Part shown: positions 4,486-29,718 of the stretch, one piece after another
Layout of the letters: every line of letters starts with the position of its first letter
How positions within the stretch are numbered: the first letter of the stretch is position 1
Virus record (IMG/VR): IMGVR_UViG_2850796239_000009
Direction: 5' to 3' (one strand)
DNA from: a virus
Taxonomy: Duplodnaviria > Heunggongvirae > Uroviricota > Caudoviricetes
Length of the DNA stretch: 56,870 bases
Translations under genes and position numbers: made by a program
The notes under the pieces: generated by a model
What the model was told of the DNA's origin: nothing
What the model saw: the letters and a program-made list of their open reading frames with translations, nothing else
Databases searched by the model: none

Positions 4486-4561
4486 GGCCCTTTAGCTCAG
4501 TGGTGAGAGCGAGCGACTCATAATCGCCAGGTCGCTGGTTCAAATCCAGCAAGGGCCACCA
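4486..4561 (+). tRNA. Phage-borne tRNA, anticodon CAU (Ile2/Met type, ileZ-like)
   Basis: 7-bp acceptor stem GGCCCUU/AAGGGCC, anticodon loop CUCAUAA, T-loop GGTTCAAATCC, encoded CCA. Confidence 0.8.
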
Positions 4562-4662
4562 TCACAAACCGGCATTAGCTTATCAGGAAGAGCAGACGAC
4601 ACGATAACAGGGTTGTTGGTGCGGGGGGCGGGTCCCCGATGGCGGTCCATTATCGGTATTCA

Positions 4663-4739
4663 GCGTTGTTAGCTCAGCCGGACAGAGCAATTGCCTTCTA
4701 AGCAATCGGTCACTGGTTCGAATCCAGTACAGCGCGCCA
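4663..4739 (+). tRNA. Phage-borne tRNA-Arg, anticodon UCU
   Basis: Acceptor stem GCGUUGU/ACAGCGC, D-loop AGCTCAGCCGGACAGAGC, anticodon loop CUUCUAA, T-loop GGTTCGAATCC, encoded CCA. Confidence 0.8.
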
Positions 4740-5203: not shown

Positions 5204-5650
5204 ATACATATCTGGATTATCACCTGTTACGGTAAAAAGTGATTGCTTACTGTTTTTGTGAATGGCATTGCAGCAGCCGGATAATGTCAGTGCTGGCTGA
5301 CGGTGTGCTGGTGGCGGGTGTGGTGGTTGTTGCTTTCCCGTTGCTGAAAAAGAAAACGCCAGACTGTTAGCCGGGTATCAGTTAGCGGGAGAAATTTTTA
5401 AATACTTCACAATTCAGGCGGTTGACTGTTGTCTGGTTTGCGGGGAGTTTGTTAAAAGAAACTGGCATGGTGAATCCCCCTGTGCGGAGGGGCAATCAGC
5501 GAGTAGGTATATGGGATAATCGCGGATTCAGGTGCTGGTACTGAATTCACCGGGAGGCACCCGGCACCATGCAATGGCACATAGCGCCACTCTCCAGCCC
5601 CTCTCCGGAGGGGCTGTTTATATTGATTTTGTCAGATGTGAGTAAACTCC

Positions 5651-8677: not shown

Positions 8678-9039
8678 ATTAATATTAAATCGGATTATTT
8701 TTAGCGCTGAATGTGAAATTTAAATAAAAAGGACTCTTCCATGAGTCAAAATCCTTGAAATCTTAAGGGTAAGATAAAAGGTCATTAGACAGAATGACAC
8801 GTTTTATTAATAAATAAAGCTATTGTTTCATTCGTGTGTTTTTCTTTACAAAAGTAATCCTTGCTATGGTTGGTTAATCATGCGTTAATGGTGTTCTGGT
8901 TTGTTACAAAATTATCTGAAGCAGTCATTGTTATAATTTTATTATTTGTACCTCTTGAGATTTCCTTGTTGGTTTTTCTCTCTGATATTTTTTTCGGACC
9001 ATTCTGCCCAAGGGCTAACTTCTTCAAAAGGTAATAATA

Positions 9040-9252
9040 ATGTCTAACAAAATGACTGGTTTAGTGAAATGGTTTAACCCTGAAAAAGGTTTTGGTTTCA
9101 TCACGCCGAAAGATGGTAGCAAAGATGTGTTTGTGCATTTCTCAGCTATTCAGAGCAACGATTTCAAAACGTTAACTGAGAATCAGGAAGTCGAATTTGG
9201 TATTGAGAACGGACCTAAAGGCCCTGCAGCTGTTCATGTAGTGGCACTTTGA
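9040..9252 (+). CDS. cspI: Cold-shock protein (CspA family, CspI-like)
   Basis: 70-aa [41 protein letters not shown]... with RNP1/RNP2 motifs. Confidence 0.85.
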
Positions 9253-9459
9253 GGTAGAAAATATTACAAACCATATTCACTTTAGATGCCCGTGTTGCCA
9301 TGGTTCTCAGTATAGAACATCATCTTTTGATGTTTCTGACAGAAATCCTTTCGGGGCAAAATGTATCTTTTGTAAATCAATGATGATTACATTTGATAAT
9401 ATTTCACAATACTTAAATGTTAGCCATCTGTCGCTAGATTTAAGAAAGTGAAAATGAAG

Positions 9460-12160: not shown

Positions 12161-12172
12161 GGGCGGCGACCT
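12161..12172 (+). other. Helper cosN cohesive-end site (lambda-type GGGCGGCGACCT) with flanking cosQ and cosB
   Basis: 12-mer GGGCGGCGACCT followed by CGCGGGTTTTCGCTATTTATGAAAATTTTCCGG..., the recalled lambda genome left end, ~190 bp upstream of nu1. Confidence 0.85.
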
Positions 12173-16326: not shown

Positions 16327-17133
16327 CCTTCTGGGGCCGGACGGCATGACATCGCTGCGTGAATATGCCGGTTATCACGGCGGTGGCAGCGGATTTGGTG
16401 GGCAGTTGCGGGCGTGGAACCCACCGGGTGAAAGTGTGGATGCAGCCCTGCTGCCCAACTTTACCCGTGGCAATGCCCGCGCAGACGATCTGGTACGCAA
16501 TAACGGCTATGCCGCCAACGCCATCCAGTTGCATCAGGATCATATCGTCGGGTCTTTTTTCCGGCTCAGTCATCGCCCAAGCTGGCGCTATCTGGGCATC
16601 GGGGAGGAAGAAGCCCGTGCCTTTTCCCGCGAGGTTGAAGCGGCATGGAAAGAGTTTGCCGAGGATGACTGCTGCTGCATTGACGTTGAGCGAAAACGCA
16701 CGTTTACCATGATGATTCGGGAAGGTGTGGCCATGCACGCCTTTAACGGTGAACTGTTCGTTCAGGCCACCTGGGATACCAGTCCCTCGCGACTGTTCCG
16801 GACACAGTTCCGGATGGTCAGCCCGAAGCGCATCAGCAACCCGAACAATACCGGCGACAGCCGGAACTGCCGTGCCGGTGTGCAGATTAATGACAGCGGT
16901 GCGGCGCTGGGATATTACGTCAGCGAGGACGGCTATCCTGGCTGGATGCCGCAGAAATGGACATGGATACCCCGTGAGTTACCCGGCGGGCGCGCCTCGT
17001 TCATTCACGTTTTTGAACCCGTGGAGGACGGGCAGACCCGCGGTGCAAATGTGTTTTACAGCGTGATGGAGCAGATGAAGATGCTCGACACACTGCAGAA
17101 CACGCAGCTGCAGAGCGCCATTGTGAAGGCGAT
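16327..17133 (+). pseudogene. B: Portal protein gpB, middle fragment
   Basis: MTSLREYAGYHGGGSGFGGQLRAWNPP...LQNTQLQSAIVKA matches recalled gpB residues ~15-283; N-terminal stub [11 protein letters not shown] at 14995-15026 is cut off by IS10-like; fragment ends at the satellite junction. Confidence 0.85.
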
Positions 17134-17261
17134 TTATGTCTATCATCTCACCGTAGTTGCCCGCATCGTTCGCCAACTCCACTGAAACCCTTGCTGCGTC
17201 TGGAATGTCGTTTTCCATGCTTTTGATGACCGTTCATCACCCTTCCAGTTTTTCGCGGTTT

Positions 17262-17315
17262 TGTGTATTGCAATGTGTATTGCAAATTGGCGATCGGGAT
17301 GGGTGTGTATTGCAA
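17262..17315 (+). repeat. Three direct TGTGTATTGCAA repeats next to attL (putative integrase arm-type sites)
   Basis: TGTGTATTGCAA at 17262-17273, 17274-17285 and 17304-17315, just upstream of int; two related copies lie near attR. Confidence 0.45.
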
Positions 17316-17333
17316 ATCTCTTGAGGGCTTTTA

Positions 17334-18574
17334 ATGGCTATTGAAAACAAACTCAGTGACAAACTGTTAAAGAGTCTTGTCGGAAAACGGCAGGACAAAC
17401 AAAAAACAATAGCGGATGGGCGCGGGTTGTCTGTGCGTGTAAGCATGGTTGGGGGATCAGCTTTGTTTTTTACTATCGTCTTGGTGGCAGGGAATCCCCT
17501 CCGGTATGGCTTACACTTGGTCGCTATCCTGACATGTCTCTTGCAACGGCCAGGCGCATGCGTGATCAGTGCCGTGAATGGCTGGCTGAAAATCTGGACC
17601 CCCGCAGGCAAATAAAACTTGCTGCCGAAAAAACTATGCAACCAGTGACCGTAAGGGATGCGCTGTTTTACTGGTACGACAATCACGCCACAACAGCCAG
17701 AAAAGAGCATGAATATTTAATAAAACGATTTGAAAAGCATATCTTCCCCTATATCGGTGATATGGCTATAGAACAGTGCAAATTACACACATGGCTTACC
17801 GTCTTTGACAGGATCAAAAAAAATGCGCCTGTTATGTCTGGTGCAATTTTTCTTGATATCAAACAGGCGTTGCGTTTTTGTCGCGTCAGGCAATACATCG
17901 CGTGCGATCCCTTTGGAGATATTAACGTAAGTTATGTCGGGCGCTCATCCGGTATAAGGGATCGCGTTCTTAATATCAATGAAACCGCTGATGTATGGTC
18001 TTATGCTTACGGTAATAATTTGCTAACTCTGTCATCAATATATAACCGAAGAATAATGGTTATCTGCCTGGTGTTTGGTTGCCGACAGCAGGAGGCGAGG
18101 CTATCCACCTGGGACGAATGGGATTTAAAAAACTGGGTATGGACAGTCCCAAAAGAGCACAGCAAAAACAAGGAGGCTATAGTAAGGCCTGTTCCTGACG
18201 GAATAAAACAATGGATCGTTAATCTTTACGCAGAAACAAAAAATCGCGGTTATGTTGTCGGTTGTGCTTTGCAAAGGGCGACAATAACAGGGGCTGCAAA
18301 CAGAATATGCAGGCGTCTTGGTCATGATACTAATGGCTTGTGGTGCATACATGATTTCAGGCGCACATTTTCCACTACGCTTAATGATATGGGGGCGGAT
18401 CCTTATATTGTCGAACTTCTTTTAGGTCATAAAGTGAAAGGGGTTGCTGGTGTTTACAATAAAAGCAGGCATATAAAGAAAAAACTTGAGGTGCTTAATA
18501 TGTGGGTTAATTACCTTAATACGATAGCAGGATTTAACAACAACGTTATCGAGCTTAATAAAGAGGTGGTGTGA
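17334..18574 (+). pseudogene. int: Tyrosine integrase (P4/CP4-57 type), frame broken in a T6 run
   Basis: MAIENKLSDKLLKSLVGKRQDKQKTIADGRGLSVRVS... switches frame at TTTTTT (17466-17471) to ...YRLGGRESPPVWLTLGRYPDMSLATARRMR... with catalytic domain (HDFRRTF, LLGH). Confidence 0.8.
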
Positions 18575-18575
18575 T

Positions 18576-18833
18576 ATGGCAATTTATTCTCTTGTTGATG
18601 AAAACGATTTGCGCACAATGAAGGACATTGATCGGTTCATTCGTGAAAAAGAGTGCATAGCACTTACCACGCTGGCAAACTCAACACGCTGGAAAATGGA
18701 GCAGGCAGGTAAATTCCCGCGACGTATCAAGATCGGTGAACGTGCTGCAGGGTATCGACTTTCAGAGGTTCAGGCATGGATCCGTGGTGAGTGGCATCCT
18801 GGATGGAAACCTGGAAAAACAAAACAGCAATAA
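18576..18833 (+). CDS. AlpA-family HTH regulator / excisionase-like
   Basis: 85-aa ORF with ...ALTTLANSTRWKMEQAGKFPRRIKIGERAAGYRLSEVQAWIRG, the AlpA/Xis MerR-like HTH pattern; immediately follows int. Confidence 0.6.
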   Translation: MAIYSLVDENDLRTMKDIDRFIREKECIALTTLANSTRWKMEQAGKFPRRIKIGERAAGYRLSEVQAWIRGEWHPGWKPGKTKQQ

Positions 18834-18846
18834 CCAGTAAATAATG

Positions 18847-18869
18847 CCCCTCATCACGAGGGGTTTTTT
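18847..18869 (+). terminator. Rho-independent terminator after int-alpA
   Basis: CCCCTC-ATCAC-GAGGGG hairpin followed by TTTTTT. Confidence 0.5.
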
Positions 18870-18889
18870 GTCTATAAGGTAAAAACGCG

Positions 18890-19468
18890 ATGAATAAAAA
18901 TATTGCCGTGACGGGCAAGGGGTACGCTCGTCCAGTGAAAAAATTCTGCGATATTCGTGATCTCGTCGTTCTGCGCTTTGATAGTGTGAACGTTCGTGTG
19001 GTGTATCTGAACGGCGATCCGTGGTTTGTTGCAAAAGATGTTTGTGCTGCGCTGGAACTAACCAATTCGCGTACGGCGTTGCAGATGCTTGATGATGATG
19101 AAAAGGGAGTAAATTTAACTTACACCCCAGGAGGAAATCAGAATATGAGAATTATCTCTGAGTCAGGTTTCTACAAACTAATAGCCCGCAGCCGCAAAGC
19201 AACGACGCCTGGCACATTTGCTCATCGTTTCAGTAACTGGGTATTCAGAAATGTGATACCAGGTATCAGAAAAACGGGGACTTATGGTATCCCGTGGGGT
19301 GCATTACAGGATTTTTCCCGCCGTAAAGAGCAATATCAAATAAGTGCCAGCGAGAAGGGGAGGGAGCTACAGGCATGTAAGCGCAAAAAGCGTGAGCTGG
19401 AGGAAGAAGAAAAAACGCTGATACGTGAATATCAGCCTGAGTTTTACTTTGGTAACCGCATTCAGTGA
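18890..19468 (+). CDS. BRO-N / KilA-N domain protein (antirepressor-like)
   Basis: 192-aa ORF with N-terminal ...LNGDPWFVAKDVCAALELTNSRTALQMLDDDEKG..., the Bro-N domain pattern. Confidence 0.6.
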   Translation: MNKNIAVTGKGYARPVKKFCDIRDLVVLRFDSVNVRVVYLNGDPWFVAKDVCAALELTNSRTALQMLDDDEKGVNLTYTPGGNQNMRIISESGFYKLIARSRKATTPGTFAHRFSNWVFRNVIPGIRKTGTYGIPWGALQDFSRRKEQYQISASEKGRELQACKRKKRELEEEEKTLIREYQPEFYFGNRIQ

Positions 19469-19801
19469 CAAAACAAAGGCGACCGCAAAAGGGTCGCCAG
19501 TGGGAACAAGGGAAAACAAAAGCATCACCAACAATGCCACATTTGCGGCTGGTGGGCAATGTGATCAGTCAGATTTGGTTCGTTCCAAGGTTTGCAACGA
19601 GAGCTTTTTCCTGTGCTCTTTAAGGAATTTCTCAAGAGCAAACGAACAAGGTGCGAATCTTTCTGATTCATGTTCATGCGCTATATTTTTGCGTCGTCTC
19701 TTACGAGTTGGTGATGGTGTTTTGGTTGATTCTGTGTCGCTCATGGTGCTGTCCTGTAAAGCAATGCGCCTGCGTTCCTCAAACTATGGCGCTGATATTG
19801 G

Positions 19802-20107
19802 CTATTCATGCTCTTTGACCTTGCGTCGCTGGAGTTCTTCACGCGCGACGGTGACGAGTTGCCCGATCTCCTCGGCTGCTTTGATGCCGATTTGTTCGAC
19901 CTTAGCCAGGGCATCCAGTGACGACACAAGGGGATTTTCTCCGCTGCCTTCTGCTTGGCGGCGGGCTATTTCTCCGCGCATGGCGGTTACGATAAATCCG
20001 GCATTGCTTTCACCGTCCAGCTTAACGGATTCCATCCCTTGCATAACATCTAGTGGGACTCTGACAGTTGTCAGTTGTGATTTTGCGTTTTTGTTAGCCG
20101 TTGCCAT
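19802..20107 (-). CDS. Putative ribbon-helix-helix DNA-binding regulator
   Basis: 101-aa ORF whose N-terminus (TTVRVPLDVMQGMESVKLDGESNAGFIVTAMRGEIARRQ) has an RHH-like strand-helix-helix pattern; divergent from the downstream operon. Confidence 0.35.
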   Translation of the reverse strand: MATANKNAKSQLTTVRVPLDVMQGMESVKLDGESNAGFIVTAMRGEIARRQAEGSGENPLVSSLDALAKVEQIGIKAAEEIGQLVTVAREELQRRKVKEHE

Positions 20108-20168
20108 TTCTGAAACTCCTAATCATCGGTGTGTTTCAGTATACACAAAAAAAGAAATACAAAAAGCC

Positions 20169-20206
20169 TTGACGTGTGTTTCATGCGCTCATAACATGAA
20201 ACACAC
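20169..20206 (+). promoter_or_regulatory. Putative promoter (-35 TTGACG) overlapped by a 12-bp inverted repeat operator
   Basis: GTGTGTTTCATG-n9-CATGAAACACAC perfect inverted repeat at 20174-20206 in the divergent intergenic region. Confidence 0.35.
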
Positions 20207-20348
20207 CGAAAGGATTGTTGAAATACAAAGAGCAACGCCCCGCAGTGCTGGGAACACATACGGGGCGTCTAACCAACAACGTAAACTAGGCTGTGTCCCT
20301 TAATCATCTGAGCTATAGTAACTGTCTGTTTACACAACATATTGAACT

Positions 20349-20798
20349 ATGGCTCGCTACGACCTTCCCGATGAGGCATGGACCATCATCAAGCCCCTGT
20401 TACCTCCTGAACCCGCCACACCACGGGCCGGACGCCCATGGGCTGAGCACCGTAAAATCATCAATGGCATGTTCTGGGTGTTATGTTCCGGTGCACCATG
20501 GCGCGATTTACCCGAACGATATGGGTCATGGAAAACTGTTTATAACCGCTTTAACCGATGGTCAAAGTCAGGCGTGATTAATATTATTTTCAACAGGTTG
20601 CTTTCGCTACTTGATGCAAACGGCTTTATTGACTGGTCTGCCACCGCGCTGGATGGCAGTAATATCCGGGCGCTGAAATGTGCCGCCGGTGCTCAAAAAA
20701 ACATCCCGATATCGACGGAGATAATGGGCCGGGTCGCTCTCGCGGCGGTTTTGGCACCAAAATCCATCTGGCAACAGACGGAAGTGGCCTCCCGTTAA
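20349..20798 (+). CDS. IS5-family transposase OrfA (copy 2)
   Basis: 149-aa ORF MARYDLPDEAWTIIKPLLPP...; A7 slippery run (GCTCAAAAAAAC) near its end feeds into orfB. Confidence 0.8.
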   Translation: MARYDLPDEAWTIIKPLLPPEPATPRAGRPWAEHRKIINGMFWVLCSGAPWRDLPERYGSWKTVYNRFNRWSKSGVINIIFNRLLSLLDANGFIDWSATALDGSNIRALKCAAGAQKNIPISTEIMGRVALAAVLAPKSIWQQTEVASR

Positions 20799-21193
20799 AT
20801 ATCGTGCTAAGCCCCGGACAAGCTCATGAAAGCCAGTTCGCGCAACGACTTCTGGACGGGATTGGCGTTCAGCGTCAGAACGGCAGCATGAAACGCCGTG
20901 GACATGCGGTACTGGCTGATAAAGCGTATTCAGGGCGCGCATTGCGCAACGAGCTGAAAAATAACGGTATAAAGGCAGTAATCCCCCGAAAGTCAAATGA
21001 GAAAATGGCATCGGATGGACGTGCACAGCTTGATCGTGATGCGTACCGCAATCGTAATGTCGTTGAACGGTGCTTTGGGCGGCTGAAAGAATATCGCCGC
21101 ATCGCCACGCGTTACGACAAAACGGCGAGAAATTACCTGGCGATGGTGAAACTGGGCTGCATCCGACTCTTTTATCAACGCTTACGTAATTAA
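20678..21193 (+). CDS. IS5-family transposase OrfB (DDE domain; likely OrfAB fusion by -1 frameshift)
   Basis: 171-aa ORF overlapping orfA in the -1 frame. Confidence 0.75.
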   Translation: MCRRCSKKHPDIDGDNGPGRSRGGFGTKIHLATDGSGLPLNIVLSPGQAHESQFAQRLLDGIGVQRQNGSMKRRGHAVLADKAYSGRALRNELKNNGIKAVIPRKSNEKMASDGRAQLDRDAYRNRNVVERCFGRLKEYRRIATRYDKTARNYLAMVKLGCIRLFYQRLRN

Positions 21194-21215
21194 GGGACAC
21201 AGCCTAGGAGCCGTT

Positions 21216-21413
21216 ATGGTTGCTGTAAATCATATACCACACCTTGTACACACACAAACGGCCTTTGTGTGGCGTTTTCTGGCACTGAGTGCCGGAGAAT
21301 CTCAAATCATCCACGTAACCGCCTGGACGGAACGCGAAGCGCGTAGCCGTTGCCCGTCCGGTTGTGTTGCTGTATTCGCTGCAAAAATCCGCCAGGGAGT
21401 GAGTCATGCTTAA
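21216..21413 (+). CDS. Hypothetical small protein (satellite operon)
   Basis: 65-aa ORF starting right after the IS5-family copy. Confidence 0.25.
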   Translation: MVAVNHIPHLVHTQTAFVWRFLALSAGESQIIHVTAWTEREARSRCPSGCVAVFAAKIRQGVSHA

Positions 21414-21591
21414 AACCTTCCGTGTATTTGCCCGAGCTGTTAACCCAATAGGCCACACAATTGGTATCGCTCAGAATGTGAAGGCTGTTAATGTTCAGAC
21501 GGCTATTGCTGCGGTGAGAAGCGAATCATCAGAATATGGCTTATCACAAGTCATTATTTCAGCAGTGTATGAATTAAAAGAGGTGCATTAA
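21406..21591 (+). CDS. Hypothetical small protein (satellite operon)
   Basis: 61-aa ORF overlapping its neighbours. Confidence 0.3.
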   Translation: MLKTFRVFARAVNPIGHTIGIAQNVKAVNVQTAIAAVRSESSEYGLSQVIISAVYELKEVH

Positions 21592-21782
21592 TGCAGGAAA
21601 TTACATTACACGAAGCCGCTGAACGTGCGCACCAGACAGAAATTATTTGCCGCCTTCTTGAGGTATACCCGAACAAAATTACAGATGCTGATATATCCGC
21701 ACTGGCGAGCCTACTGGCGCGTCTTTCGGGAAGTGTCGCTAGTTTTTTGATTGAGGAAGAAAGTAAGCTGGTGGGGGATTAA
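21591..21782 (+). CDS. Hypothetical small protein (satellite operon)
   Basis: 63-aa ORF with overlapping stop/start. Confidence 0.3.
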   Translation: MQEITLHEAAERAHQTEIICRLLEVYPNKITDADISALASLLARLSGSVASFLIEEESKLVGD

Positions 21783-22004
21783 ATGAATACAGAACGGGAA
21801 GTCTTTTTTAAATTGTTAGCATGTGCAGAAAGTTCATTAACTTTAAATAATTCAGCAAAAGCAATATTAAATATGTGGCTTGATTGCATAAATGACAATG
21901 AAGATGCAAATATTGCTTATGGCCTGTTGTCACTTATTGATGAATCAGCAGAAAAACTCAATGACGCAATAAATAGTGCCCTGCTATCAAATAAGTCGAG
22001 TTAA
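21783..22004 (+). CDS. Hypothetical small protein (satellite operon)
   Basis: 73-aa ORF. Confidence 0.3.
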   Translation: MNTEREVFFKLLACAESSLTLNNSAKAILNMWLDCINDNEDANIAYGLLSLIDESAEKLNDAINSALLSNKSS

Positions 22005-22021
22005 GTCGAGGAATAAATAAT

Positions 22022-22321
22022 ATGGAAATGAAAAATTCTGGCTTTATTGCCAGCGGCCCCGCTCGACCTGAATTTATGAACGGCGATATTTACCGCGATA
22101 AATACGGCGGCACGGTAACGATTAAAGGCGTGGCAGAACGGCGCATCACTTACCGCCGTGAGGGGTATAGCTATGACTGCGTGATGCCTGTTTATCAGTT
22201 CCGGCGTGATTTTTCCCTGGTATATGCCGCACCCCGCAGTAAGCCCATCAGCAGGGAAAAAGCGTGGGGAAATATCCAGAAAATGAAAACCATGATTAAC
22301 GGATTCAGAGGTAAAAAATGA
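22022..22321 (+). CDS. Hypothetical protein (satellite operon)
   Basis: 99-aa ORF whose stop overlaps the pri-rep start. Confidence 0.3.
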   Translation: MEMKNSGFIASGPARPEFMNGDIYRDKYGGTVTIKGVAERRITYRREGYSYDCVMPVYQFRRDFSLVYAAPRSKPISREKAWGNIQKMKTMINGFRGKK

Positions 22322-24071
22322 AACTGGCACCGAACGTAAAACAGCAGTCACGCGGCATAAAACACAAAGGAACAGAAGTAATTATTTTTGCGGGTAGTGA
22401 TGCCTGGGCACACGCGAAACAATGGCAGGAACATGATGCGCGTATGGCCGGAGATAATGAGCCTCCTGTGTGGCTTGGGGAGCAGCAGCTATCCGAACTG
22501 GATAATCTGCAAATTGTGCCGGAAGGCCGAAAATCAGCACGCATATACAGGGCCGGATATCTTGCGCCTGTAATGATAAAGGCGATTGGTCAGAAGCTGG
22601 CGGCAGCAGGCGTACAGGATGCAAATTTTTATCCTGAGGGTATGCACGGCCAGGAGGTGCAGAACTGGCGCGAATATCTGGCCCGTGAACGCCAGAATCT
22701 TTCTGATGGTCTGGTCATTGAGCTTCCGGTAAAGCAAAAGGCGCAACTTTCGCAGATGGCGGACAGTGAGCGCGCGCAGTTGCTTGCCGATCGCTTTGAT
22801 GGCGTTTGCGTACATCCTGAAAGTGAAATCGTTCACGTATGGCGCGGCGGGGTATGGTGTCCGGTCAGCACAATGGAACTTAGCCGCGAAATGGTGGCGA
22901 TCTATTCAGAGCACAGGGCCACTTTCAGCAAGCGCGTAATCAATAACGCCGTGGAAGCGTTAAAAGTTATTGCCGAACCAATGGGCGAGCCGTCTGGCGA
23001 TTTGCTGCCGTTCGCCAATGGTGCGCTTGACCTGAAAACGGGGGAATTTTCCCCGCACACGCCGGAGAACTGGATCACCACGCACAACGGCATTGAGTAC
23101 ACGCCACCAGCACCAGGGGAGAACATCCGCGATAACGCGCCAAACTTTCATAAATGGCTTGAGCACGCAGCCGGAAAAGACCCGCGCAAGATGATGCGTA
23201 TATGTGCCGCGCTGTACATGATTATGGCGAACCGGTACGACTGGCAGATGTTTATTGAGGCCACCGGAGACGGCGGGAGCGGTAAAAGTACATTCACACA
23301 CATAGCCAGCCTTCTGGCAGGGAAACAGAACACGGTAAGCGCTGAAATGACATCGCTTGATGATGCTGGTGGACGTGCGCAGGTTGTCGGGAGTCGTCTT
23401 ATCGTCCTGGCTGACCAGCCGAAATATACAGGCGAAGGAACGGGCATCAAGAAAATCACAGGCGGCGACCCGTGGAAATTAACCCGAAATATGAAAAGCG
23501 TTTCACGGCGGTAATCAGGGCGGTGGTGCTGGCGACCAACAACAACCCGATGATATTCACCGAACGGGCCGGAGGTGTGGCACGTCGTCGCGTGATTTTC
23601 CGTTTCGACAATATCGTCAGTGAGGCCGAAAAAGACAGGGAGCTACCGGAAAAGATTGCGGCTGAAATCCCCGTTATTATCCGCCGATTGCTGGCGAACT
23701 TTACCGACCCTGAGAAGGCACGGGCTTTACTACTGGAACAGCGTGACGGTGATGAAGCACTGGCAATAAAGCAACAGACGGATCCGGTTATTGAGTTTTG
23801 CCAGTTCCTGAATTTTCTGGAGGAAGCGCGCGGCCTGATGATGGGTGGCGGTGGTGATTCAGTGAAGTACACGACCAGGAACAGCCTTTACCGCGTCTAT
23901 CTGGCGTTTATGGCATACGCGGGCAGGAGCAAACCGCTAAACGTGGCTGAGTTCAGCAAGGCCATGAAGCCAGCGGCGAAAGTTTACGGGCATGAATATA
24001 TTACGCGAAAAGTTAAGGGAGTAACGCAGACCAACGCAATTACAACAGACGATTGCGACGCGTTTTTATAA
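22318..24071 (+). pseudogene. Primase-helicase (pri-rep, D5/P4-alpha-like), frame broken near 23470
   Basis: Walker A GDGGSGKST; ...KITGGDP switches frame to VEINPKYEKRF...NNNP (helicase-like C-terminus); two ORFs 22318-23514 and 23472-24071. Confidence 0.7.
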
Positions 24072-24087
24072 TTTTTTGTAAAAGCCA

Positions 24088-24325
24088 TCTACCCCATCTA
24101 CCTGAACGAAATAAACGCATATTATTCAACATGATAAGTGGGTATAGGGCTAGGTAGAAGGCTAATAAAAGCTCTCTACCTCTTCTACCTGATTTTATCA
24201 GTTTCAGGTAGCAGGGTAGACGGCAGGTAGAGGAGTCAAAAAAGCTATCTACCCGCTGAAAGCGGCGCCATTACTGACATGATGAGCATTCGGGTAGATG
24301 GGTAGAGGGGGGAGGCACAACTAAA
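24088..24325 (+). repeat. Iteron cluster / putative satellite replication origin
   Basis: At least ten TCTACC/GGTAGA-type repeats in both orientations with AT-rich spacers, directly downstream of pri-rep. Confidence 0.5.
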
Positions 24326-24355
24326 AACTTTTTAAACGAGGGGGGGTGAAAATAA

Positions 24356-24670
24356 ATGCGCATACATAAAAATCACTTAACAAACATGCCAGCCGAAAAC
24401 ATGAATCAGGGGCGACAAATGACCAAAATTCGCAGAGACAGAACACAGGCAAAATATAAAGCGTTAGACATGACAGAGCTTTCCTTAAAGGTGGCAATCA
24501 AAGCGATAGACCACCACACACGGGCAGGATACGCGAAGGAACATCCCGACCTGATAAGCGCATTCATGACCACAGCAGCGGCAAACTTTGCCACGCTGAC
24601 AGAACGGGAGATTGCCGAAGCGGAACAGGTGACAACCATCAATGTTAAAACCGGAGAGCAGACAGCATGA
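24356..24670 (+). CDS. Hypothetical protein
   Basis: 104-aa ORF; no recognisable motif. Confidence 0.3.
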   Translation: MRIHKNHLTNMPAENMNQGRQMTKIRRDRTQAKYKALDMTELSLKVAIKAIDHHTRAGYAKEHPDLISAFMTTAAANFATLTEREIAEAEQVTTINVKTGEQTA

Positions 24671-25089
24671 CAGCACAGATAGCGGCTTACGGGCGGCTGG
24701 TGGCTGACCCGCAGTTAAAGACCACCAGCAAAGGGACACAAATGGCGATGGCGAGTATGGCGGTTCCCCTGCCGTGCAGCCAGGCAGATGACGGAACGGC
24801 GACGATGTGGTTATCCGTCCTGGCGTTTGGCAGACAGGCCGACGCACTGGCAAAACACCACAAAGGCGAACTGGTGAGCGTGGCGGGTAACATGCAGGTA
24901 AGCCAGTGGACAGGCCAGAACGGCGAAACGCGGCGGGGCTGGCAGGTTATCGCAGACAGCGTAATCAGTGCGCGAACGGCGCGACCGGGCGGCAAAAAAG
25001 GCCAGCAGGGGCAGGCCACTGACGCACTGAACAGGGCAAAACAACAGTCGGGGAATGATGATCCGTACGGCGATAATATACCGTTTTAA
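24667..25089 (+). CDS. SSB-like single-stranded DNA-binding protein
   Basis: 140-aa ORF with Gly/Gln-rich linker and acidic C-terminal tip DDPYGDNIPF resembling the SSB tail DDDIPF. Confidence 0.5.
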   Translation: MTAQIAAYGRLVADPQLKTTSKGTQMAMASMAVPLPCSQADDGTATMWLSVLAFGRQADALAKHHKGELVSVAGNMQVSQWTGQNGETRRGWQVIADSVISARTARPGGKKGQQGQATDALNRAKQQSGNDDPYGDNIPF

Positions 25090-25300
25090 ATTCTGCAAAC
25101 AAAAAGATGCCGGAAAAAAATAGATTTTCCGGCATGCTACATAAATCCCGACCAAAGGAAGTAAATACATTAACACGAATTATCAGCACTGAAGTTGTTA
25201 CGGCATATTTTATACAACATTGCACTTGGTTGCATGTGTTCGCATAGCAGACATCGGTAATAGAATATATTCACAATTATTTGTAATGAATGTAAAGAGG

Positions 25301-26347
25301 ATGAGTATGGTTGATTTATATTCGCCTACACAGCTTGTGCAGGTGGCTAATGCTGAAGATGTGCAAAAAAATTAAATGCGTTGTTTACCAGTTTGTTTTT
25401 CACTCGCTCGGTAATGTTTGAATCGAGAGACATTATTCTTGATACGATCGACGATCCAAATATCCCGATCGCGGCGTTTTGCTCTCCTATGGTGGGCAGT
25501 AAAGTTTCACGAGATGAGGGATACGAATCAAAAACAATTCGTCCAGGTTATATGAAGCCGAAAAGCAGCATTGATCCAAATAAGTTAGCTGTGCAGCCCT
25601 GCTGGTGTGTCACCTGAGCAATACAATGCTTTTGGGGCGCGTAATATTAAAGTTAAACAGGCGATTGTAAATCAGGCTAAAGCTATTCGTGCACGTATTG
25701 AATGGCTTGCTGTTCAGGCAATCACAACGGGGAAAAATATCATTGAGGGCGATGGTATTGAACGTTATGAGCTGGACTGGAATATAAAACCACAAAATAT
25801 CATCACTCAGTCTGGCGGTACTGAGTGGTCAGGTAAGGATAAAGAAACTTTTGATCCAAATGATGATATTGAGAGCTACGCAGAATTTAGTGAGGGCGTC
25901 ACTAATATCATCATTATGGGTGGTAATGTATGGAAGAAATACCGTTCATTCAGAGCGATAAAAGAGGCTTTGGATACCCGTCGTGGTTCTAATTCCGAAC
26001 TGGAAACGGCCCTTAAAGACCTTGGTGATTCGGTGAGTTTTAAAGGGTATATGGGCGATGTTGCGATTGTTGTTTACAGCGGGCGTTATACCGACGAGGA
26101 CGGAACAGAAAAACATTTCCTTGATCCTGATTTGATGGTGCTTGGCAATACGGCTCTTCAGGGGATTGTCGCCTATGGCGGTATTCAGGATCCGGAGCTA
26201 ATCCGAATGGGGCTGACTAAAGCCGAACTTGCACCGAAAAACTATATTGTGCCTGGTGATCCGGCTATTGAATATGTGCAGACACATTCAGCACCACAGC
26301 CAATACCGGCCCGCATCAATCGTTTTGTTACCGTTCGCATTGGCTAA
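25301..26347 (+). pseudogene. Major capsid protein paralog (lambda gpE-like) encoded by the satellite; two homopolymer frame breaks
   Basis: MSMVDLYSPTQLVQVANAEDVQK (compare gpE MSMYTTAQLLAANEQKF), then ...ITQSGGTEWS...DTRRGSNSELETALKDLG...GDVAIVVYSG... alignable with the helper gpE at 31416-32441; breaks at the A7 run 25365-25371 and CCC at 25597-25599. Confidence 0.75.
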
Positions 26348-26356
26348 GGGGGAGCA

Positions 26357-26698
26357 ATGGCTACTCATTACACTGAACTCATGGCTGGCACTGAAGCACT
26401 GGTGACTACGCTGGGGATATTTTCAGCTAATAAAGGGGTAATTCCTGCATTTACGCCACTGATGCAGGAAGATGCAACAGGTGCACTGGTGGTATGGGAT
26501 GGTTCGAGCGTAGGTAAAGCGGTTTATGTTTCCGCTGTACAAATCGACACCGCGAAAAAAACACAGGCTCAGGTCTATAAGACAGGTGTCTTAAATGTTG
26601 ATGCTCTGAACTGGCCTGAGTCTGTTAAAGAACTGTCAGTAAAGGTTGCAGCGTTTGTTGGCTCAGGTATTTCTGTTCAGCCGCTGGCTCGTGTGTAA
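26357..26698 (+). CDS. Head decoration protein paralog (lambda gpD-like) encoded by the satellite
   Basis: 113-aa ORF with ...AFTPLMQEDATGALVVWDGSSVGKAVYVSAVQID... alignable with helper gpD (...[35 protein letters not shown]...). Confidence 0.7.
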   Translation: MATHYTELMAGTEALVTTLGIFSANKGVIPAFTPLMQEDATGALVVWDGSSVGKAVYVSAVQIDTAKKTQAQVYKTGVLNVDALNWPESVKELSVKVAAFVGSGISVQPLARV

Positions 26699-26709
26699 AG
26701 GGGGATACA

Positions 26710-27093
26710 ATGCAGAATGATTACAATGACCTTAAGCCAATTGCCGAAATGATGTACCCGAATCCAGCTGTAGAGGAATTAAAAGCTATCGCTGACAAAA
26801 TGTGTTTAAGCGAGCGCCTTGTTGATATGAATCAGGTGATGGAAATTACAACCCTGAGTCGTCGTACACTGCTAAACCTTGAGGCTAGTGGAGAGTTCCC
26901 GGAGCGTGTGCAGGTTACGGAAGGGCGTAAGGCCTGGTATTTAAGTGAAGTGATCGACTGGATAAATAATATTCCTCGCGCTTCTGAATATTGCCGCGTA
27001 CCTGTCCCAAAAAAGCCAGATGCGGCGCTATGCCTCAAGATTGAGCGTGTACGCCGCAATGCACGGGATGGTCGCTATAAGCTGATTGGTTGA
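26710..27093 (+). CDS. AlpA-like HTH DNA-binding protein
   Basis: 127-aa ORF with ...MEITTLSRRTLLNLEASGEFPERVQVTEGRKAWYLSEVIDWINN, a MerR/AlpA-like HTH pattern. Confidence 0.45.
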   Translation: MQNDYNDLKPIAEMMYPNPAVEELKAIADKMCLSERLVDMNQVMEITTLSRRTLLNLEASGEFPERVQVTEGRKAWYLSEVIDWINNIPRASEYCRVPVPKKPDAALCLKIERVRRNARDGRYKLIG

Positions 27094-27149
27094 TGAAATT
27101 AGGGCCCGCTCTGGCTGGCGGGTCCTTTCCGGTGATCCGGTAGGCTACG

Positions 27150-27161
27150 GGGCGGCGACCT
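27150..27161 (+). other. Satellite cos site (cosN GGGCGGCGACCT, helper-like cosQ, divergent cosB)
   Basis: GGGTCCTTTCCGGTGATCCGGTAGGCTACGGGGCGGCGACCTCGCGGGTTTTCGCTATTTATGA matches the helper cos at 12131-12195 almost base for base, then diverges. Confidence 0.75.
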
Positions 27162-27282
27162 CGCGGGTTTTCGCTATTTATGAGCCTTTTTCGGGTGCTG
27201 GTGGTGGTTTTGTTGTTCGCTCTATCTCTATGAATAAAAAGGAAAAGATAAAGCCAATACACCAACCTGAAACATTACTTAA

Positions 27283-27837
27283 GTGGGGATATTGATGAAA
27301 TCGCACCTGATGAACAAAAAAAACATGGCGCAAAGCTGCCGTGTAAGTGCGACAGCGTTCGACAAGTGGGGAGTGACTCCCGTTGAACGTAAAGGCCGCG
27401 AGGCGTTTTATGATGTTGCCAGCGTAATAGACAATCGGGTTAGCAATGCAATTAACCAGATTACAGACGACAAAGGCGAGATTGATGATGATGAACTCCT
27501 ACGAGTCAGGATCAGATTGCTGACAGCACAGGCAGAGGCGCAGGAGCTTAAAAACGAGCGCGAACGCGGCGACGTTATTGATACAGCGTTTTGTATATAC
27601 GTGCTTTCAAAATTGGCGAGTCAGATTTCTTCAATCATGGACAGCCTGCCGCTTGCCATGACAAGGAAGTTTCCCGACATGAAGCCGTCTATGCTGGATG
27701 GACTGAAAAAAGAAGTTATCAGAGCCTGTAACGCATGCGCAAAACTTGACGAAAACATACCGCTGATGCTGTCCGATTATCTGATGGAAACTGCCGGAAA
27801 CGTACCGGATAAGTTGCAGCCGAATAAAGATAAGTAA
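27283..27837 (+). CDS. Satellite terminase small subunit (Nu1-like; divergent N-terminal domain)
   Basis: C-terminal part ...LTAQAEAQELKNERERGDVIDTAFCIYVLSKLASQISSIMDSLPL... parallels Nu1 ...[46 protein letters not shown]...; true start may be Met-10 (27310). Confidence 0.7.
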   Translation: MGILMKSHLMNKKNMAQSCRVSATAFDKWGVTPVERKGREAFYDVASVIDNRVSNAINQITDDKGEIDDDELLRVRIRLLTAQAEAQELKNERERGDVIDTAFCIYVLSKLASQISSIMDSLPLAMTRKFPDMKPSMLDGLKKEVIRACNACAKLDENIPLMLSDYLMETAGNVPDKLQPNKDK

Positions 27838-27848
27838 CGTAGTACGCT

Positions 27849-28130
27849 ATGACTGAATCCGAAATACTGCGATTAATCCGCCGTGCTTGTGGAATCAGCA
27901 AGCAGCATGACGAACAGGCCACGCAGCCGGACAGCGTGACCGCAGATAATTATGTGCGTGTAGTGGCTGAGGTGATGCGCCGTGACGGTATTGAGCTTAA
28001 CGGCGTGGATATGCGCAACATACGAACAAGAGTCCTTGAGTTGCTGGCATATCGTCGCCGTTCTCAACAACGGAGGGAGAGCGCGAAAAATACTTACCAG
28101 TGGAAGAAGCCGGAACGATTGCGGCGGTAA
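27849..28130 (+). CDS. Hypothetical protein
   Basis: 93-aa basic ORF after terS. Confidence 0.3.
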   Translation: MTESEILRLIRRACGISKQHDEQATQPDSVTADNYVRVVAEVMRRDGIELNGVDMRNIRTRVLELLAYRRRSQQRRESAKNTYQWKKPERLRR

Positions 28131-28560
28131 CTTGCTGATATTCCCGATAACGCAAAATTGCGCTGGCTGACTTGTTGCATTGCAAAAAGTTAAGCAGGAA
28201 GGCACGGCCTGTAAGATGGGATGCAGTAAGTAGTTCAAGGCTACCTTGTGCTGGCACGCACAGTTAAGCCGTCGGTGCTGGATATCCCCCACTGGGGAAA
28301 AGCTGGCTACATCCCTCACATCTGAGGACTGATAACGCGACATTGCGCTGGCTGGCAAAGTGCAAAATTGCACGATGGCCTAACCCATTGATTATTTCGA
28401 AAACCTGCAATGCAGGAAATCGGGGAAGTAAGCCTAAGCTATTGATTGTTTCGAAAACCCCCATTGGGGGATGTCGGGAAAGTAAGACTAACCCATTGAT
28501 TCTTCCACAATCCTCAATTTGAGGAGGCCGGAACGTCTACATAGCTGCATCGCCGTAATG
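28130..28560 (+). repeat. Array of direct repeats each containing a different perfect palindrome (covarying stems)
   Basis: Three tandem ~54-bp units (28383-28545) share ATTGATTnTTyC...TCGGGrAAGTAAG and hold CCTGCA-A-TGCAGG, CCCCCA-T-TGGGGG, CCTCAA-T-TTGAGG; related pair GATAACGCnAnATTGCGCTGGCTG at 28146 and 28331 with CGCAA-AA-TTGCG, TTGCA-T-TGCAA, GTGCAA-AA-TTGCAC. Confidence 0.6.
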
Positions 28561-28843
28561 ATGATTCAGCCCACCAGCCAAATCAGCACAGCAACGACAG
28601 AATAGCCCGACACAGAAAAACCACGAATATGGGGTTTTTGTTATGACATGGTCATGATGACCACTCATACAAAACAGGTAAAGCCCACCAGCCTGATTAA
28701 AGGTTAACCGGAAAAAAGCCAGGTATCCAATCTCGATATGGGGATCCCTATATCGACATTAACGCCCACTAAAACTGTGCATATATGCATAGAAAAAGCA
28801 TCCACCAGCTTTATGACGGATGCCGCTCATCTTATAAATAATC

Positions 28844-28866
28844 GTGTATTGCAGTGTGTATTGCGA
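28844..28866 (+). repeat. Two GTGTATTGC repeats next to attR (arm-type-like)
   Basis: CGTGTATTGCAGTGTGTATTGCGA, related to the TGTGTATTGCAA repeats at attL. Confidence 0.4.
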
Positions 28867-28946
28867 CTCCTTTAAACGATAGGTCTGAGCATTCGTAATG
28901 TACTGTTTTTAAATTTTATTTTTTCCTGTCTTTTCATAAAGGCGAT

Positions 28947-29718
28947 GTATGCCGCCACCATTGAGAGTGAGCTGGATACGCAGTCAGCGATGGATTTTAT
29001 TCTGGGCGCGAACAGTAAGGAGCAGCGGGACAAGCTGACCGGCTGGATTGGTGAAATTGCCGCGTATTACGCCGCAGCACCGGTCCGTCTGGGAGGCGCA
29101 AAAGTGCCGCACCTGATGCCGGGGGACTCACTGAACCTGCAGACGGCTCAGGACACGGATAACGGCTACTCCGTGTTTGAGCAGTCACTGTTGCGGTATA
29201 TCGCTGCCGGGCTGGGTGTCTCGTATGAGCAGCTTTCCCGGAATTACGCCCAGATGAGCTACTCCACGGCACGGGCCAGTGCGAACGAGTCGTGGGCGTA
29301 CTTTATGGGGCGGCGAAAATTCGTCGCATCCCGTCAGGCGAGCCAGATGTTTCTGTGCTGGCTGGAAGAGGCCATCGTTCGCCGCGTGGTGACGTTACCT
29401 TCAAAAGCGCGTTTCAGCTTTCAGGAAGCCCGCAGCGCCTGGGGGAACTGTGACTGGATAGGCTCCGGTCGTATGGCCATCGATGGTCTGAAAGAAGTAC
29501 AGGAAGCGGTGATGCTGATAGAAGCCGGACTGAGTACCTACGAGAAAGAGTGCGCAAAACGCGGTGACGACTATCAAGAAATTTTTGCCCAGCAGGTCCG
29601 TGAAACGATGGAGCGCCGTGCAGCCGGTCTTAAACCGCCCGCCTGGGCGGCTGCGGCATTTGAATCCGGACTGCGACAATCAACAGAGGAGGAGAAGAGT
29701 GACAGCAGAGCTGCGTAA
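28947..29718 (+). pseudogene. B: Portal protein gpB, C-terminal fragment
   Basis: MYAATIESELDTQSAMDFILGANSKEQRDKLTGW...LRQSTEEEKSDSRAA matches recalled gpB residues ~284-533; resumes exactly where 16327-17133 stops. Confidence 0.85.

Follow-up and report, generated by a model that had tools for sequence, protein, structure and literature searches.

What does an array of direct repeats do when each repeat holds a different perfect palindrome at the same position? The question is raised by a satellite within IMGVR_UViG_2850796239_000009, a Caudoviricetes record whose 56,870 nucleotides form the window analysed here. The array lies where the initial annotation had placed it, between the terS region and attR: terS (27283-27837) is followed by a 93-aa ORF, the array and the attP arm motif at 28845. 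On balance, we read 28128-28539 as a tandem, co-oriented array of composite operators for IHF and Roi-family proteins that would act at the DNA level. It is probably a multi-specificity docking or decoy site. The features referred to below are:

27140-27185, plus strand: satellite cos site, with the exact lambda cosN GGGCGGCGACCT at 27150-27161
27283-27837: terS, upstream of the array
27849-28130, plus strand: hyp93, the conserved 93-aa ORF and the sole gene always next to the array
28128-28170, plus strand: module 1, IHF-like core TAACTTGCTGATA (28128-28140), then the dyad CGCAA-AA-TTGCG (28151-28162)
28281-28310, plus strand: decayed module, dyad part ATCCCCCACTGGGGAAAAGCTGG kept, IHF core lost
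28331-28375, plus strand: two truncated modules, GATAACGCGACATTGCGCTGGCTG and GCAAAGTGCAA-AA-TTGCAC
28378-28431, plus strand: unit 1, IHF consensus 28381-28393 (minus strand AATCAATGGGTTA), dyad CCTGCA-A-TGCAGG 28404-28416
28432-28485, plus strand: unit 2, IHF consensus 28435-28447, dyad CCCCCA-T-TGGGGG 28458-28470
28486-28539, plus strand: unit 3, IHF consensus 28489-28501, dyad TCCTCAA-T-TTGAGGA 28511-28525
28612-28641, plus strand: A/T-rich hairpin, then a T-run (-8.6 kcal/mol, z -1.1)
28845-28864, plus strand: HE-PICI attP arm motif TGTATTGCagtgTGTATTGC, with a second copy at 17264-17283

The three tandem units of about 54 bp described at the outset were borne out. Tandem Repeats Finder detected a 54-nt period spanning 28378-28501 (2.3 copies, 80% matches), and a repeat search placed three in-register copies at 28378-28431, 28432-28485 and 28486-28539, with identities of 100, 80 and 61% to the first. 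Their palindromes are as originally given (CCTGCA-A-TGCAGG, CCCCCA-T-TGGGGG and CCTCAA-T-TTGAGG), the third extending by one pair to the form listed above. Counting perfect palindromes with arms of at least 5 and loops of at most 2, the region 28120-28560 contains 7, compared with 1.39 +/- 1.31 in 1000 dinucleotide shuffles, three of which reach 7; with arms of at least 6 there are 4 where 0.36 are expected, a count reached by two shuffles. The conserved frame reported around the palindromes is present and can be specified as an exact IHF consensus, WATCAANNNNTTR, on the minus strand of all three units (AATCAATGGGTTA, AATCAATAGCTTA and AATCAATGGGTTA in units 1, 2 and 3), with the dyad centre a constant 18 bp away.

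Further upstream, the motif GATAACGCnAnATTGCGCTGGCTG indeed occurs twice, at 28146 and 28331 (92% identity), and the accompanying small palindromes exist as well; both are better described as a fourth module (28128-28170) plus decayed and truncated ones (28281-28375). The fourth module, comprising the upstream 'GATAACGC...' motif, is of the same type as the tandem units, and the TAA of its IHF-like core is the stop codon of the 93-aa ORF. Three or four decayed or truncated modules occupy 28281-28375, between module 1 and unit 1. The decayed one (28281-28310) can be compared with TCCCCCA-T-TGGGGGAAGCTGG in L022; within 28331-28375, GATAACGCGACATTGCGCTGGCTG is a spoiled CGCAA dyad with its spacer deleted, and GCAAAGTGCAA-AA-TTGCAC is a dyad (28360-28373) without an IHF core. 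The array totals four intact non-coding modules and three to four relics, with four different dyads, three of which match roi classes.

The element that carries this array has the context of a helper-embedded PICI. The doubled arm motif TGTATTGC is exact at both ends (17264 and 28845), and the satellite splits the portal gene of the host prophage, which resumes at about 28945. Both this arm motif and integration inside a prophage late gene are described for this PICI type (PMC10111431). Array and attR are separated by 0.4-0.8 kb. Arm sites of att were considered as an identity for the array and discarded, the motif of the clade being different in sequence and mapped at 28845.

Roi and Rha proteins are widespread in lambdoid and Stx phages, and it is in their genes that the units have relatives. 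In BLAST searches single units match within annotated roi or KilAC-antirepressor genes at identities of 88-96%; these matches invariably lie some 120-175 nt from the start codon, in antisense orientation to roi, and all array matches are either satellite ends or roi genes. The matched segment covers codons ~41-58, where HK022 and other phages bear the same IHF-site-plus-dyad. Unit 1 resembles roi class C ('PALQ', related to the HK022 type; 82% identity), unit 2 class A (VT2-Sakai and HK629 type, 'PPMV'; 89%) and unit 3 class B ('PQIE'; 96%). Each unit is open in the Roi frame and nearer to one roi allele class (82-96% identity) than to the neighbouring units (69-78%). By sequence comparison the units are homologues of distinct roi alleles, not diverged copies of each other. 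The compensatory base changes of the initial annotation did not arise in place; each unit represents a distinct phage roi allele class. The notion that the region is the remnant of a known repetitive element does not hold for REP/BIME or IS ends, although the units do have a homologue in a segment of a known phage gene.

In the roi gene of HK022, the one that has been studied by experiment, CTGCA-T-TGCAG comes first and a perfect IHF consensus, AATCAATGATTTA, 11 nt after it, and the register between IHF site and dyad is identical in HK022, VT2-Sakai-type, HK629-type and phiP27 genes. Further module classes have their matches in phiP27 and Stx1 phages, at the corresponding position of Rha-like 'DNA-binding protein' genes. 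The 47-kb genome of HK629 contains the class-A dyad once, and its perfect IHF consensus sites are three in attP and one in roi. The dyad of unit 2 is perfect in the satellite and imperfect, with one mismatch, in all 48 phage copies of class A, which suggests selection for symmetry within the satellite itself. For the commonest module class, CGCAA-AA-TTGCG, no counterpart in a phage gene was found in the phage collection and E. coli genomes searched. Clerget and Boccard are said to have found in 1996 that Roi binds within its own gene, close to an IHF site, and that IHF stabilises this intragenic binding. Rha and Roi proteins also block phage growth in IHF-deficient hosts (PMC4936722).

A constraint at the level of DNA is seen in phages and satellites alike. 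Across 36 distinct 5' sequences of roi, codons 45-55 specify three to five amino acids per codon with a single synonymous variant across all eleven (CAA/CAG at codon 47), a pattern that indicates a constraint on the DNA. Ile52, Asn53 and Leu55 are ATC, AAT and TTA in 35 of the 36, the dyad-less allele having other residues, and the adjoining Gly56 uses four codons. The putative recognition-helix residues of Roi vary between dyad classes, and class B combines the same helix and dyad with two different downstream backgrounds. The linkage of helix and dyad may also reflect no more than hitch-hiking in a shared cassette.

On the satellite side, the TAA....TGAT positions are the most conserved among 42 unique modules, the NNNN positions being free; 19 have the strict IHF consensus and 32 have WATCAR. 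The dyad centre follows TTGAT by 17.5-18.5 nt in 40 of the 42, a distance fixed to within 0.5 nt. Complementarity at arm positions 1-5 is found in 40-42 of the 42 modules, percentages inflated by a module finder that required a palindrome, and three to four pair types occur at positions 2-4. When 17 modules from satellites and phages are aligned without gaps, pairing holds in 85.7% of cells compared with 69.5% after shuffling (reached in 0 of 500), and double-sided changes number 18 compared with 6.2. Covariation scores 0.417, whereas shuffles give 0.131 and slid registers 0.04-0.11. Dyads stay perfect even where module flanks diverge by up to ~40%. The claim that pairing is preserved while stem sequence varies therefore stands on these figures, and the covariation analysis set beforehand as its check exceeds both shuffled and slid controls.

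What fits poorly is the accompanying proposal of a hairpin constraint rather than a sequence-specific operator. The modules share a half-site, C-N-C-M-A, beside the centre, in which positions 1, 3 and 5 hardly vary; the centres measure just 1-2 nt; and mismatches in the inner arms (5 G.T-type and 6 A.C-type) show neither G.T enrichment nor strand bias. Half-site consensus, narrow centres and mismatch pattern are typical of operators for dimeric proteins, here of a diversifying protein family.

Related arrays terminate many E. coli PICI and cf-PICI satellites, directly after hyp93. Of 5426 complete E. coli genomes, 837-1234 show the array; the arrays comprise one to five detected modules (six to eight in L004, read by eye) from about ten dyad families. 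The class of module 1 accounts for the upper figure, occurring in 1234 of the 5426 genomes and always at satellite ends. Matches per genome have a median of one place and a maximum of five. Modules of about ten source classes have common boundaries, from the IHF core through the dyad, and a common orientation, 75 being on the plus and two on the minus strand. Modules are mosaics of an IHF block and a dyad block, and arrays differ among satellites with identical hyp93. The position of the array is constant even though the satellites differ in their modules for integration, replication and packaging: one and the same array type follows Nu1-type terS and P27-type terS/terL modules, and accompanies both RepA-helicase and D5-primase replication modules.

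Each module combines an IHF site with a different palindrome drawn from the roi genes of several lambdoid phages, and the array thus looks like a set of docking sites for the regulators of multiple phage types. The mechanism we propose starts from the module, a candidate IHF site followed at a fixed 18 bp by a short dyad-symmetric operator. Its homologous counterpart in the roi genes of lambdoid phages, and in related genes for Rha-domain 'DNA-binding proteins', is the IHF-site-plus-dyad in the DNA that encodes the variable part of the N-terminal DNA-binding domain. IHF would bend each module, and the dyad would be occupied by a Roi-family dimer whose specificity matches it and which comes from a phage present in the cell. 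As the modules carry dyads of different roi classes, the satellite would display docking sites for several phage types. Replication of the satellite would multiply the array into a high-capacity sink or decoy for Roi-family proteins, in competition with the one autoregulatory site that the phage itself has in roi. We infer binding by Roi-family proteins and IHF from the sequences of the modules, and the predicted consequence is titration of, or interference with, roi-bearing phages, not induction of the satellite. The decoy array, one of the guesses made at first reading, survives in this form. An autoregulated protein may, as a counterpoint to a sink, compensate for titration.

For EcCIEDL933, whose cf-PICI type is represented here by the array-bearing L004, HK106 is the proven helper (cf-PICI paper). 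A roi homologue and the dyads were searched for in HK106, and none was found. To our knowledge, lambda, a helper of lambda-cos PICIs, is likewise without roi. The array is therefore dispensable for induction and transfer by those helpers. The idea that the array senses the helper is weakened by HK106, which has neither roi nor dyads. In the window, tblastn detected no roi or Rha-like gene, the window's own prophage being without roi, and Pfam found no Rha-like domain in the satellite ORFs. A near-identical satellite occurs in strain CFSAN064035, where the nin region of the prophage also has no roi; that record and the window are not colinear left of the late zone. Satellite module class and resident roi class show no consistent match in a comparison of 7 IMG genomes with both a satellite and a roi prophage, too small a sample and one in which the helper need not be resident.

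More tentatively, and with considerable doubt, the composite operators might be viewed as an evolving library. Satellites would hold operator cassettes taken from Roi/Rha autoregulatory sites, one module per specificity class, and the amplified, multi-specific DNA sponge would capture these regulators together with IHF and disturb roi-bearing phages. If true, this would be a protein-directed, sequence-memory-like device for counter-measure or exploitation in non-coding DNA, with modules gained and lost as phage alleles turn over. Should the predicted binding be true, we know of no earlier non-coding satellite element directed against a family of phage regulatory proteins, nor of a natural decoy array with several specificities described in the conflict between phages and satellites. 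The array would then also offer a function-oriented handle on Roi/Rha, which are poorly understood beyond their IHF-dependent toxicity. The comparison further brings to light a compact 'specificity cassette' in roi: the stretch coding for the variable DNA-binding region also contains the protein's own likely operator. Our search of the satellite literature for PICIs in connection with Roi or IHF found no mention of the array.

Among the alternatives, an RNA-level role survives best, though we consider it unlikely. The array would be the 3' untranslated tail of the late operon terS-hyp93 and provide either a series of ~50-nt antisense stretches to the mRNAs of several roi alleles or stabilising 3' stem-loops. 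All modules point the same way as the satellite genes and lie antisense to roi, and 82-96% identity to phage alleles over 45 nt would allow pairing; however, the mosaics of IHF and dyad blocks shorten contiguous complementarity to any single allele, the class-A dyad has been 'perfected' in the satellite and is no copy of the phage target, and the commonest module class has no phage target. The interval between hyp93 and the array lacks a terminator, and past the array lies the hairpin with T-run at 28612-28641, which is kept in L004 and is possibly the operon terminator, a weak signal that the terminator scan did not call. If it is a terminator, the late transcript includes the array in its 3' untranslated portion. 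On either strand the region is predicted to fold better than its shuffles (z -4.6 and -3.0), and units 1 and 2 fold into an inner 5-bp and an outer 4-bp stem. Centres of 1-2 nt, however, force triloops at the cost of a base pair, and the inner-arm mismatches, free of strand bias, speak against the RNA reading. With G-U allowed, 85% of cells in the outer columns pair, and one column pair is T.G in 11 of 17 sequences, which pairs on the plus strand only; these outer 'pairs' nevertheless fall on conserved Arg and Glu codons of roi. No Rfam family matches, either at gathering score in the window or at E<=1 in 27800-29000, which also leaves the initially suggested analogy to the P4 CI/seq immunity RNAs unsupported.

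It is rather unlikely that the modules are scars, that is, fragments of phage roi/rha genes acquired by repeated satellite-phage recombination, amplified by unequal crossing-over and carried as passive passengers. PICIs are known to capture helper DNA (PMC10111431). The open Roi frame of each unit, its closeness to a phage allele, the relics beside intact modules and the variation of arrays behind identical hyp93 would all be expected of such a history. Passive passengers would nevertheless hardly show identical boundaries and orientation from ~10 source classes, perfect dyads amid diverging flanks or a class-A dyad better than the phage version, nor keep one position across different integration, replication and packaging modules in so many genomes.

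A purely architectural role is quite improbable. Phased IHF bends with a 54-bp period and a satellite or host protein on the dyads would together shape the element's right end for excision, insulation or as a roadblock to read-through, with no phage protein involved. The three perfect IHF sites at 54-bp spacing, the proximity of attR, the mobilisation of an array-bearing cf-PICI type by a roi-less helper and the satellite-specific CGCAA class, fused to the hyp93 stop codon, are compatible with this. Against it, the satellite encodes no Rha-like domain by tblastn or Pfam, and three to eight different dyads are more than a single satellite protein could read. The array is also common to elements with unrelated integrases, and this integrase clade has an arm motif of another sequence, located closer to the core (PMC10111431).

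A packaging (cos/cosB) or replication-origin element, likewise among the first suggestions and brought to mind by the nearby terS and by the resemblance of repeats plus IHF sites to lambda cosB and iteron origins, is very improbable: packaging is rejected because the exact lambda cosN (27150; other copy 12161, none within 28100-28600) lies with its flanks (27140-27185) 1 kb upstream of the array and ahead of terS as in lambda and known PICIs (PMC9026076), and a role in replication is unlikely, given that satellites with different replication modules have the array in common, its type being independent of these and of terS type, and that mapped PICI origins colocalise with replication genes (PMC10111431).

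Returning to the composite operators, the closest known system is the intragenic Roi/IHF site of HK022 roi, of the same sequence family, with an IHF consensus and adjacent dyad at equal spacing and direct homology of the array units to roi alleles (82-96%); the HK022 gene carries the module itself. The phage site is a single copy in coding sequence, matched to the protein of the same gene, whereas the array is tandem and non-coding, with four dyads in an element encoding no Roi. By function the array would resemble datA, a DnaA-titrating DnaA-box cluster of E. coli that needs IHF: in both, clustered binding sites plus IHF would form a sink for a regulatory protein. Unlike the array, datA is a chromosomal housekeeping locus of a single specificity that promotes DnaA-ATP hydrolysis, and the two are unrelated in sequence. 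Boccard and Prentki reportedly described, in 1993, BIME/RIB-RIP elements as REP palindromes flanking an IHF site at operon 3' ends. The array shares with them an IHF site and palindromes past the last gene of a transcription unit, but has no REP sequence and occurs at a median of one place per genome, not hundreds.

Plasmid centromeres are similar in that tandem direct repeats each carry a small inverted repeat and IHF is involved: F sopC consists of 12 repeats of 43 bp, each with an inverted repeat, and in P1 parS, ParB boxes surround an IHF site. The repeats of a centromere do not differ and are bound by a single protein encoded alongside, whereas the array units are 61-80% alike with differing dyads; no partition genes were found among the ten largest satellite ORFs scanned. 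Lambda cosB (R3-I1-R2-R1) also combines three repeats with IHF sites near terS, but would fall between cosN and terS, while the array lies 1 kb past cosN and is independent of terS type. The P4 CI RNA and seqA-seqC (Rfam C4, isrK) share the satellite context and short structured repeats; such elements of P4-like satellites lie in the Bro zone, and the array at the right end of its satellite (PMC10111431).

The constant neighbour of the array, hyp93, has no Pfam family, and its 977 homologues are all named 'hypothetical'. In the cf-PICI paper, loss of a 'hypothetical gene 1792', which may or may not correspond to hyp93, lowers transfer. A Foldseek search of the PDB returned only matches with E>2, and the AF2 model of hyp93 is helical (pLDDT 74).

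The array at 28128-28539 is a real and widespread feature (837-1234 of 5426 E. coli genomes), best supported as a DNA-level set of putative IHF and Roi-family operators; its anatomy is clear, its biological role uncertain. The 54-nt repeats and palindromes that the initial annotation described at 28120-28560 were recovered by repeat finding. Tandem Repeats Finder places the 54-nt period at 28378-28501, and a repeat search gives copies in register with identities of 100, 80 and 61%, together with a 24-nt motif duplicated at 28146 and 28331. Seven perfect palindromes with arms of at least 5 and centres of at most 2 lie in the region (1.39 expected from 1000 dinucleotide shuffles, three of which reached seven), and four have arms of at least 6 (0.36 expected). 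The frame noted as conserved is present in all three units, and its real identity is the minus-strand IHF consensus WATCAANNNNTTR, exact in each. The array stands past the last gene, about 1 kb beyond cos and 0.4-0.8 kb short of attR, among these features:

16346-17185 and 28945-29718, halves of a lambdoid prophage's portal gene (lambda-B type), interrupted by the satellite
about 17140-28940, phage satellite of ~11.8 kb that hosts the array
17264-17283 and 28845-28864, the two copies of arm motif TGTATTGCnnnnTGTATTGC
27140-27185, satellite cos site, exact lambda cosN plus flanks, upstream of terS
27849-28130, hyp93, a conserved 93-aa ORF
28128-28170, fourth module; core TAACTTGCTGATA begins on the hyp93 stop codon, dyad CGCAA-AA-TTGCG
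28281-28375, decayed or truncated modules
28378, 28432 and 28486, starts of units 1, 2 and 3

Searched by BLAST against phage genomes and 5426 complete E. coli genomes, the array matched two kinds of sequence: other satellite ends and, through single units, the interior of lambdoid nin-region genes annotated as Roi or as KilAC-domain antirepressors. The matches to genes have 88-96% identity and are antisense to the gene, with the start codon always ~120-175 nt away. Roi joins a Rha-like N-terminal DNA-binding domain to a C-terminal ANT/KilAC domain. Across HK022 roi and 80 IMG/VR roi loci (comparison loci L086-L165 and L168), a variable cassette at about residues 22-64 is flanked by conserved sequence on either side, and inside it codons 44-48 spell a dyad of three classes: A, CCCCCA-A-TGGTGG ('PPMV'); B, CCTCAA-A/T-TTGAGG ('PQI/FE'); and C, CCTGCA-T-TGCAGG ('PALQ'). 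AATCAATNNNTTAG sits 11 nt downstream of the dyad. The window units carry the same three dyads (unit 1 class C, unit 2 class A, unit 3 class B). The identity of each unit to its own phage class (82, 89 and 96%) exceeds that to its array neighbours (69-78%). In HK022 roi, CTGCA-T-TGCAG is followed by a perfect IHF consensus. Clerget & Boccard (1996) reportedly found that Roi, with IHF as a stabiliser, binds inside the gene that encodes it, at a site close to one for IHF; the sequence here is consistent with this. Phage growth in IHF-deficient hosts is blocked by Rha and Roi proteins (PMC4936722; PMC3430580).

A 'specificity cassette', in which a variable helix and wing are encoded by DNA holding the dyad and IHF site, is exchanged among roi alleles; one allele ('LPPMQKVENKQ') has neither dyad nor IHF site. 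Two antisense ORFs of 166 and 66 aa (minus strand, 27873-28373 and 28264-28464) extend over parts of hyp93 and the array, probably for no other reason than that the modules are all open in the Roi frame; their Roi-like stretch covers 27 residues only (tblastn).

Codon usage points to what is being conserved in the phages. The roi 5' ends compared comprise 36 distinct sequences, in which codons 45-55 encode three to five amino acids each, yet show one synonymous variant only (CAA/CAG, codon 47); the codons flanking them have 1-3 each, and Gly56, next to the constrained codons, uses all four. Ile52, Asn53 and Leu55 are ATC, AAT and TTA in 35 of the 36, the exception being the dyad-less allele, which has other residues there. 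Judged from these sequences, the constraint on codons 45-55 is at the DNA level. Putative recognition-helix residues vary by dyad class, and class B retains one helix and one dyad on two downstream backgrounds; the helix-dyad association could be explained by linkage within one cassette. HK629, a Lambdavirus with lambda-type packaging genes, contains the class-A dyad once and only four perfect IHF consensus sites, three in attP and one in roi.

In satellites that differ in integration, replication and packaging modules, the sole gene always adjoining the array is hyp93, for which neither a Pfam family nor a fold match was found. The first IHF-like core takes in the hyp93 stop codon, and the final ~30 nt of the gene look like a module flank (GAAGAAGCCGGAACG vs GAGGAGGCCGGAACG). 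L004, an O157:H7 cf-PICI of the EDL933 type, has integrase, replication and packaging modules different from those of the window and ends in the same hyp93, then six to eight modules. The comparison took in 38 right ends, all distinct (the window, L004 and 36 from IMG/VR loci with hyp93 as anchor), and 1-5 modules were detected in 31 of them. Exact dyad strings number 21 and group into about ten families. Orientation is with the satellite genes in 75 modules and on the opposite strand in two, at least one of which is the reverse reading of a plus-strand module. The IHF core TAA....TGAT holds the best-conserved positions in 42 unique modules, its NNNN positions being free, and in 40 of these the dyad centre shifts by no more than half a base. 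Complementarity at arm positions 1-5 holds in 40-42 of the 42, values that are upper bounds since the module finder required a palindrome, a requirement that does not impose a fixed register or strand asymmetry. Positions 2-4 use three to four pair types, arm mismatches in the 42 modules show no G.T excess, and satellite modules have the half-site C-N-C-M-A in common.

The proposal that stems vary while pairing is preserved held when 17 modules from satellites and phages were aligned without gaps: dyad pairing reaches 85.7% of cells, compared with 69.5% in shuffles (0/500), 18 changes are double-sided against 6.2, and covariation scores 0.417 in register but 0.04-0.11 in slid registers. The class-A dyad is perfect in the satellite and has one mismatch, imposed by 'PPMV', in 48 of 48 phage copies. 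The initial annotation had taken such pairing to favour hairpins over an operator; operators of a dimeric protein are the better fit to the short centres, to a half-site that is shared yet variable at its specificity positions, and to dyads perfected outside coding sequence. The modules would be copies of intragenic sites from several phage roi alleles, maintained as separate units whose boundaries stay constant.

A role at the RNA level, which is less probable, would draw on probable transcription of the array as the tail of the late operon, on its antisense relation to roi, on predicted RNA structures that fold well on both strands, and on an outer helix paired in 85% of cells with G-U allowed; this helix includes a + strand-specific T.G column, which, however, coincides with conserved Arg and Glu codons. 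That the modules are passive recombination scars is less likely, given their constant boundaries and orientation and the preservation of perfect dyads. A purely architectural function of IHF cannot account for there being several dyad classes. The array is not a cos site (the exact cosN lies at 27150-27161), an att arm site (TGTATTGCnnnnTGTATTGC stands at 28845) or a REP/BIME element (BLAST matches are satellite ends or roi-type genes), and tests for a replication origin, a centromere and an Rfam family were negative.

If these are composite IHF and Roi-family operators, phages would have to supply the proteins that bind the dyads, because the satellite encodes no Rha-like domain. The favoured gain for the satellite is a sink or decoy: once the satellite amplifies, the array would compete with the phage's single autoregulatory site. 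Helper sensing during induction is unlikely, since HK106, a proven helper of EcCIEDL933, has no roi and none of the dyads, and lambda, helper of lambda-cos PICIs, is not known to carry roi either. Seven genomes with both satellite and roi prophage gave no consistent match of module class to roi class, and the commonest module class had no phage counterpart in the collections searched. The array yields a specific, testable biochemical prediction. The HK022 roi site is reportedly the one experimental precedent for this type of module; the multi-allelic tandem array in satellites appears undescribed within the literature searched, and the HE-PICI and cf-PICI papers examined do not mention it.

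Tommasini et al. 2023 (PMC10111431) described helper-embedded PICIs, for which the doubled arm motif is a defining mark. The satellite is of this type and sits inside the lambda B-like portal gene of its prophage, which is lambdoid. The satellite encodes an integrase, AlpA, a Bro-N protein, an IS-type transposase ORF, a split D5-type primase, SSB, capsid-E-like and decoration-D-like proteins, a second AlpA-like protein, terS (Nu1-type C-terminus) and hyp93. Enteric PICIs are likewise described with cos upstream of terS (PMC9026076); the prophage (12161-12172) and the satellite (27150-27161) each have one exact lambda cosN, GGGCGGCGACCT. Of the Phage_Nu1 domain, the satellite terS has only the C-terminal part (Nu1 80-162), so that its N-terminal, DNA-binding part is another type. 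The DDE transposase ORF and the D5_N/Pox_D5 primase, broken into two overlapping ORFs, together cover 20678-21193 and 22318-24071, and this copy may be partly decayed. The late zone recurs in strain CFSAN064035, where the integrase and the replication module are different.

Downstream of the array, an A/T hairpin (28612-28641) precedes a perfect palindrome, TGGTCAT-G/A-ATGACCA (28648-28662; L004 4361-4377; two copies in comparison locus L026). Both are kept even in module-free right ends and are an element separate from the array. CCACCAGC(C/T) is directly repeated three times between array and attR (28571, 28685 and 28802, ~115 bp spacing), with one copy in L004; these repeats may be recombination-protein sites. 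Rfam and ARAGORN matches elsewhere in the window (4486-4739, 5436-5625, 8883-9298 and 53332-53530) are tRNA-Met, tRNA-Arg, the sRNA STnc100, a cspA-type thermoregulator leader and IS009, all prophage- or IS-related and unrelated to the array.
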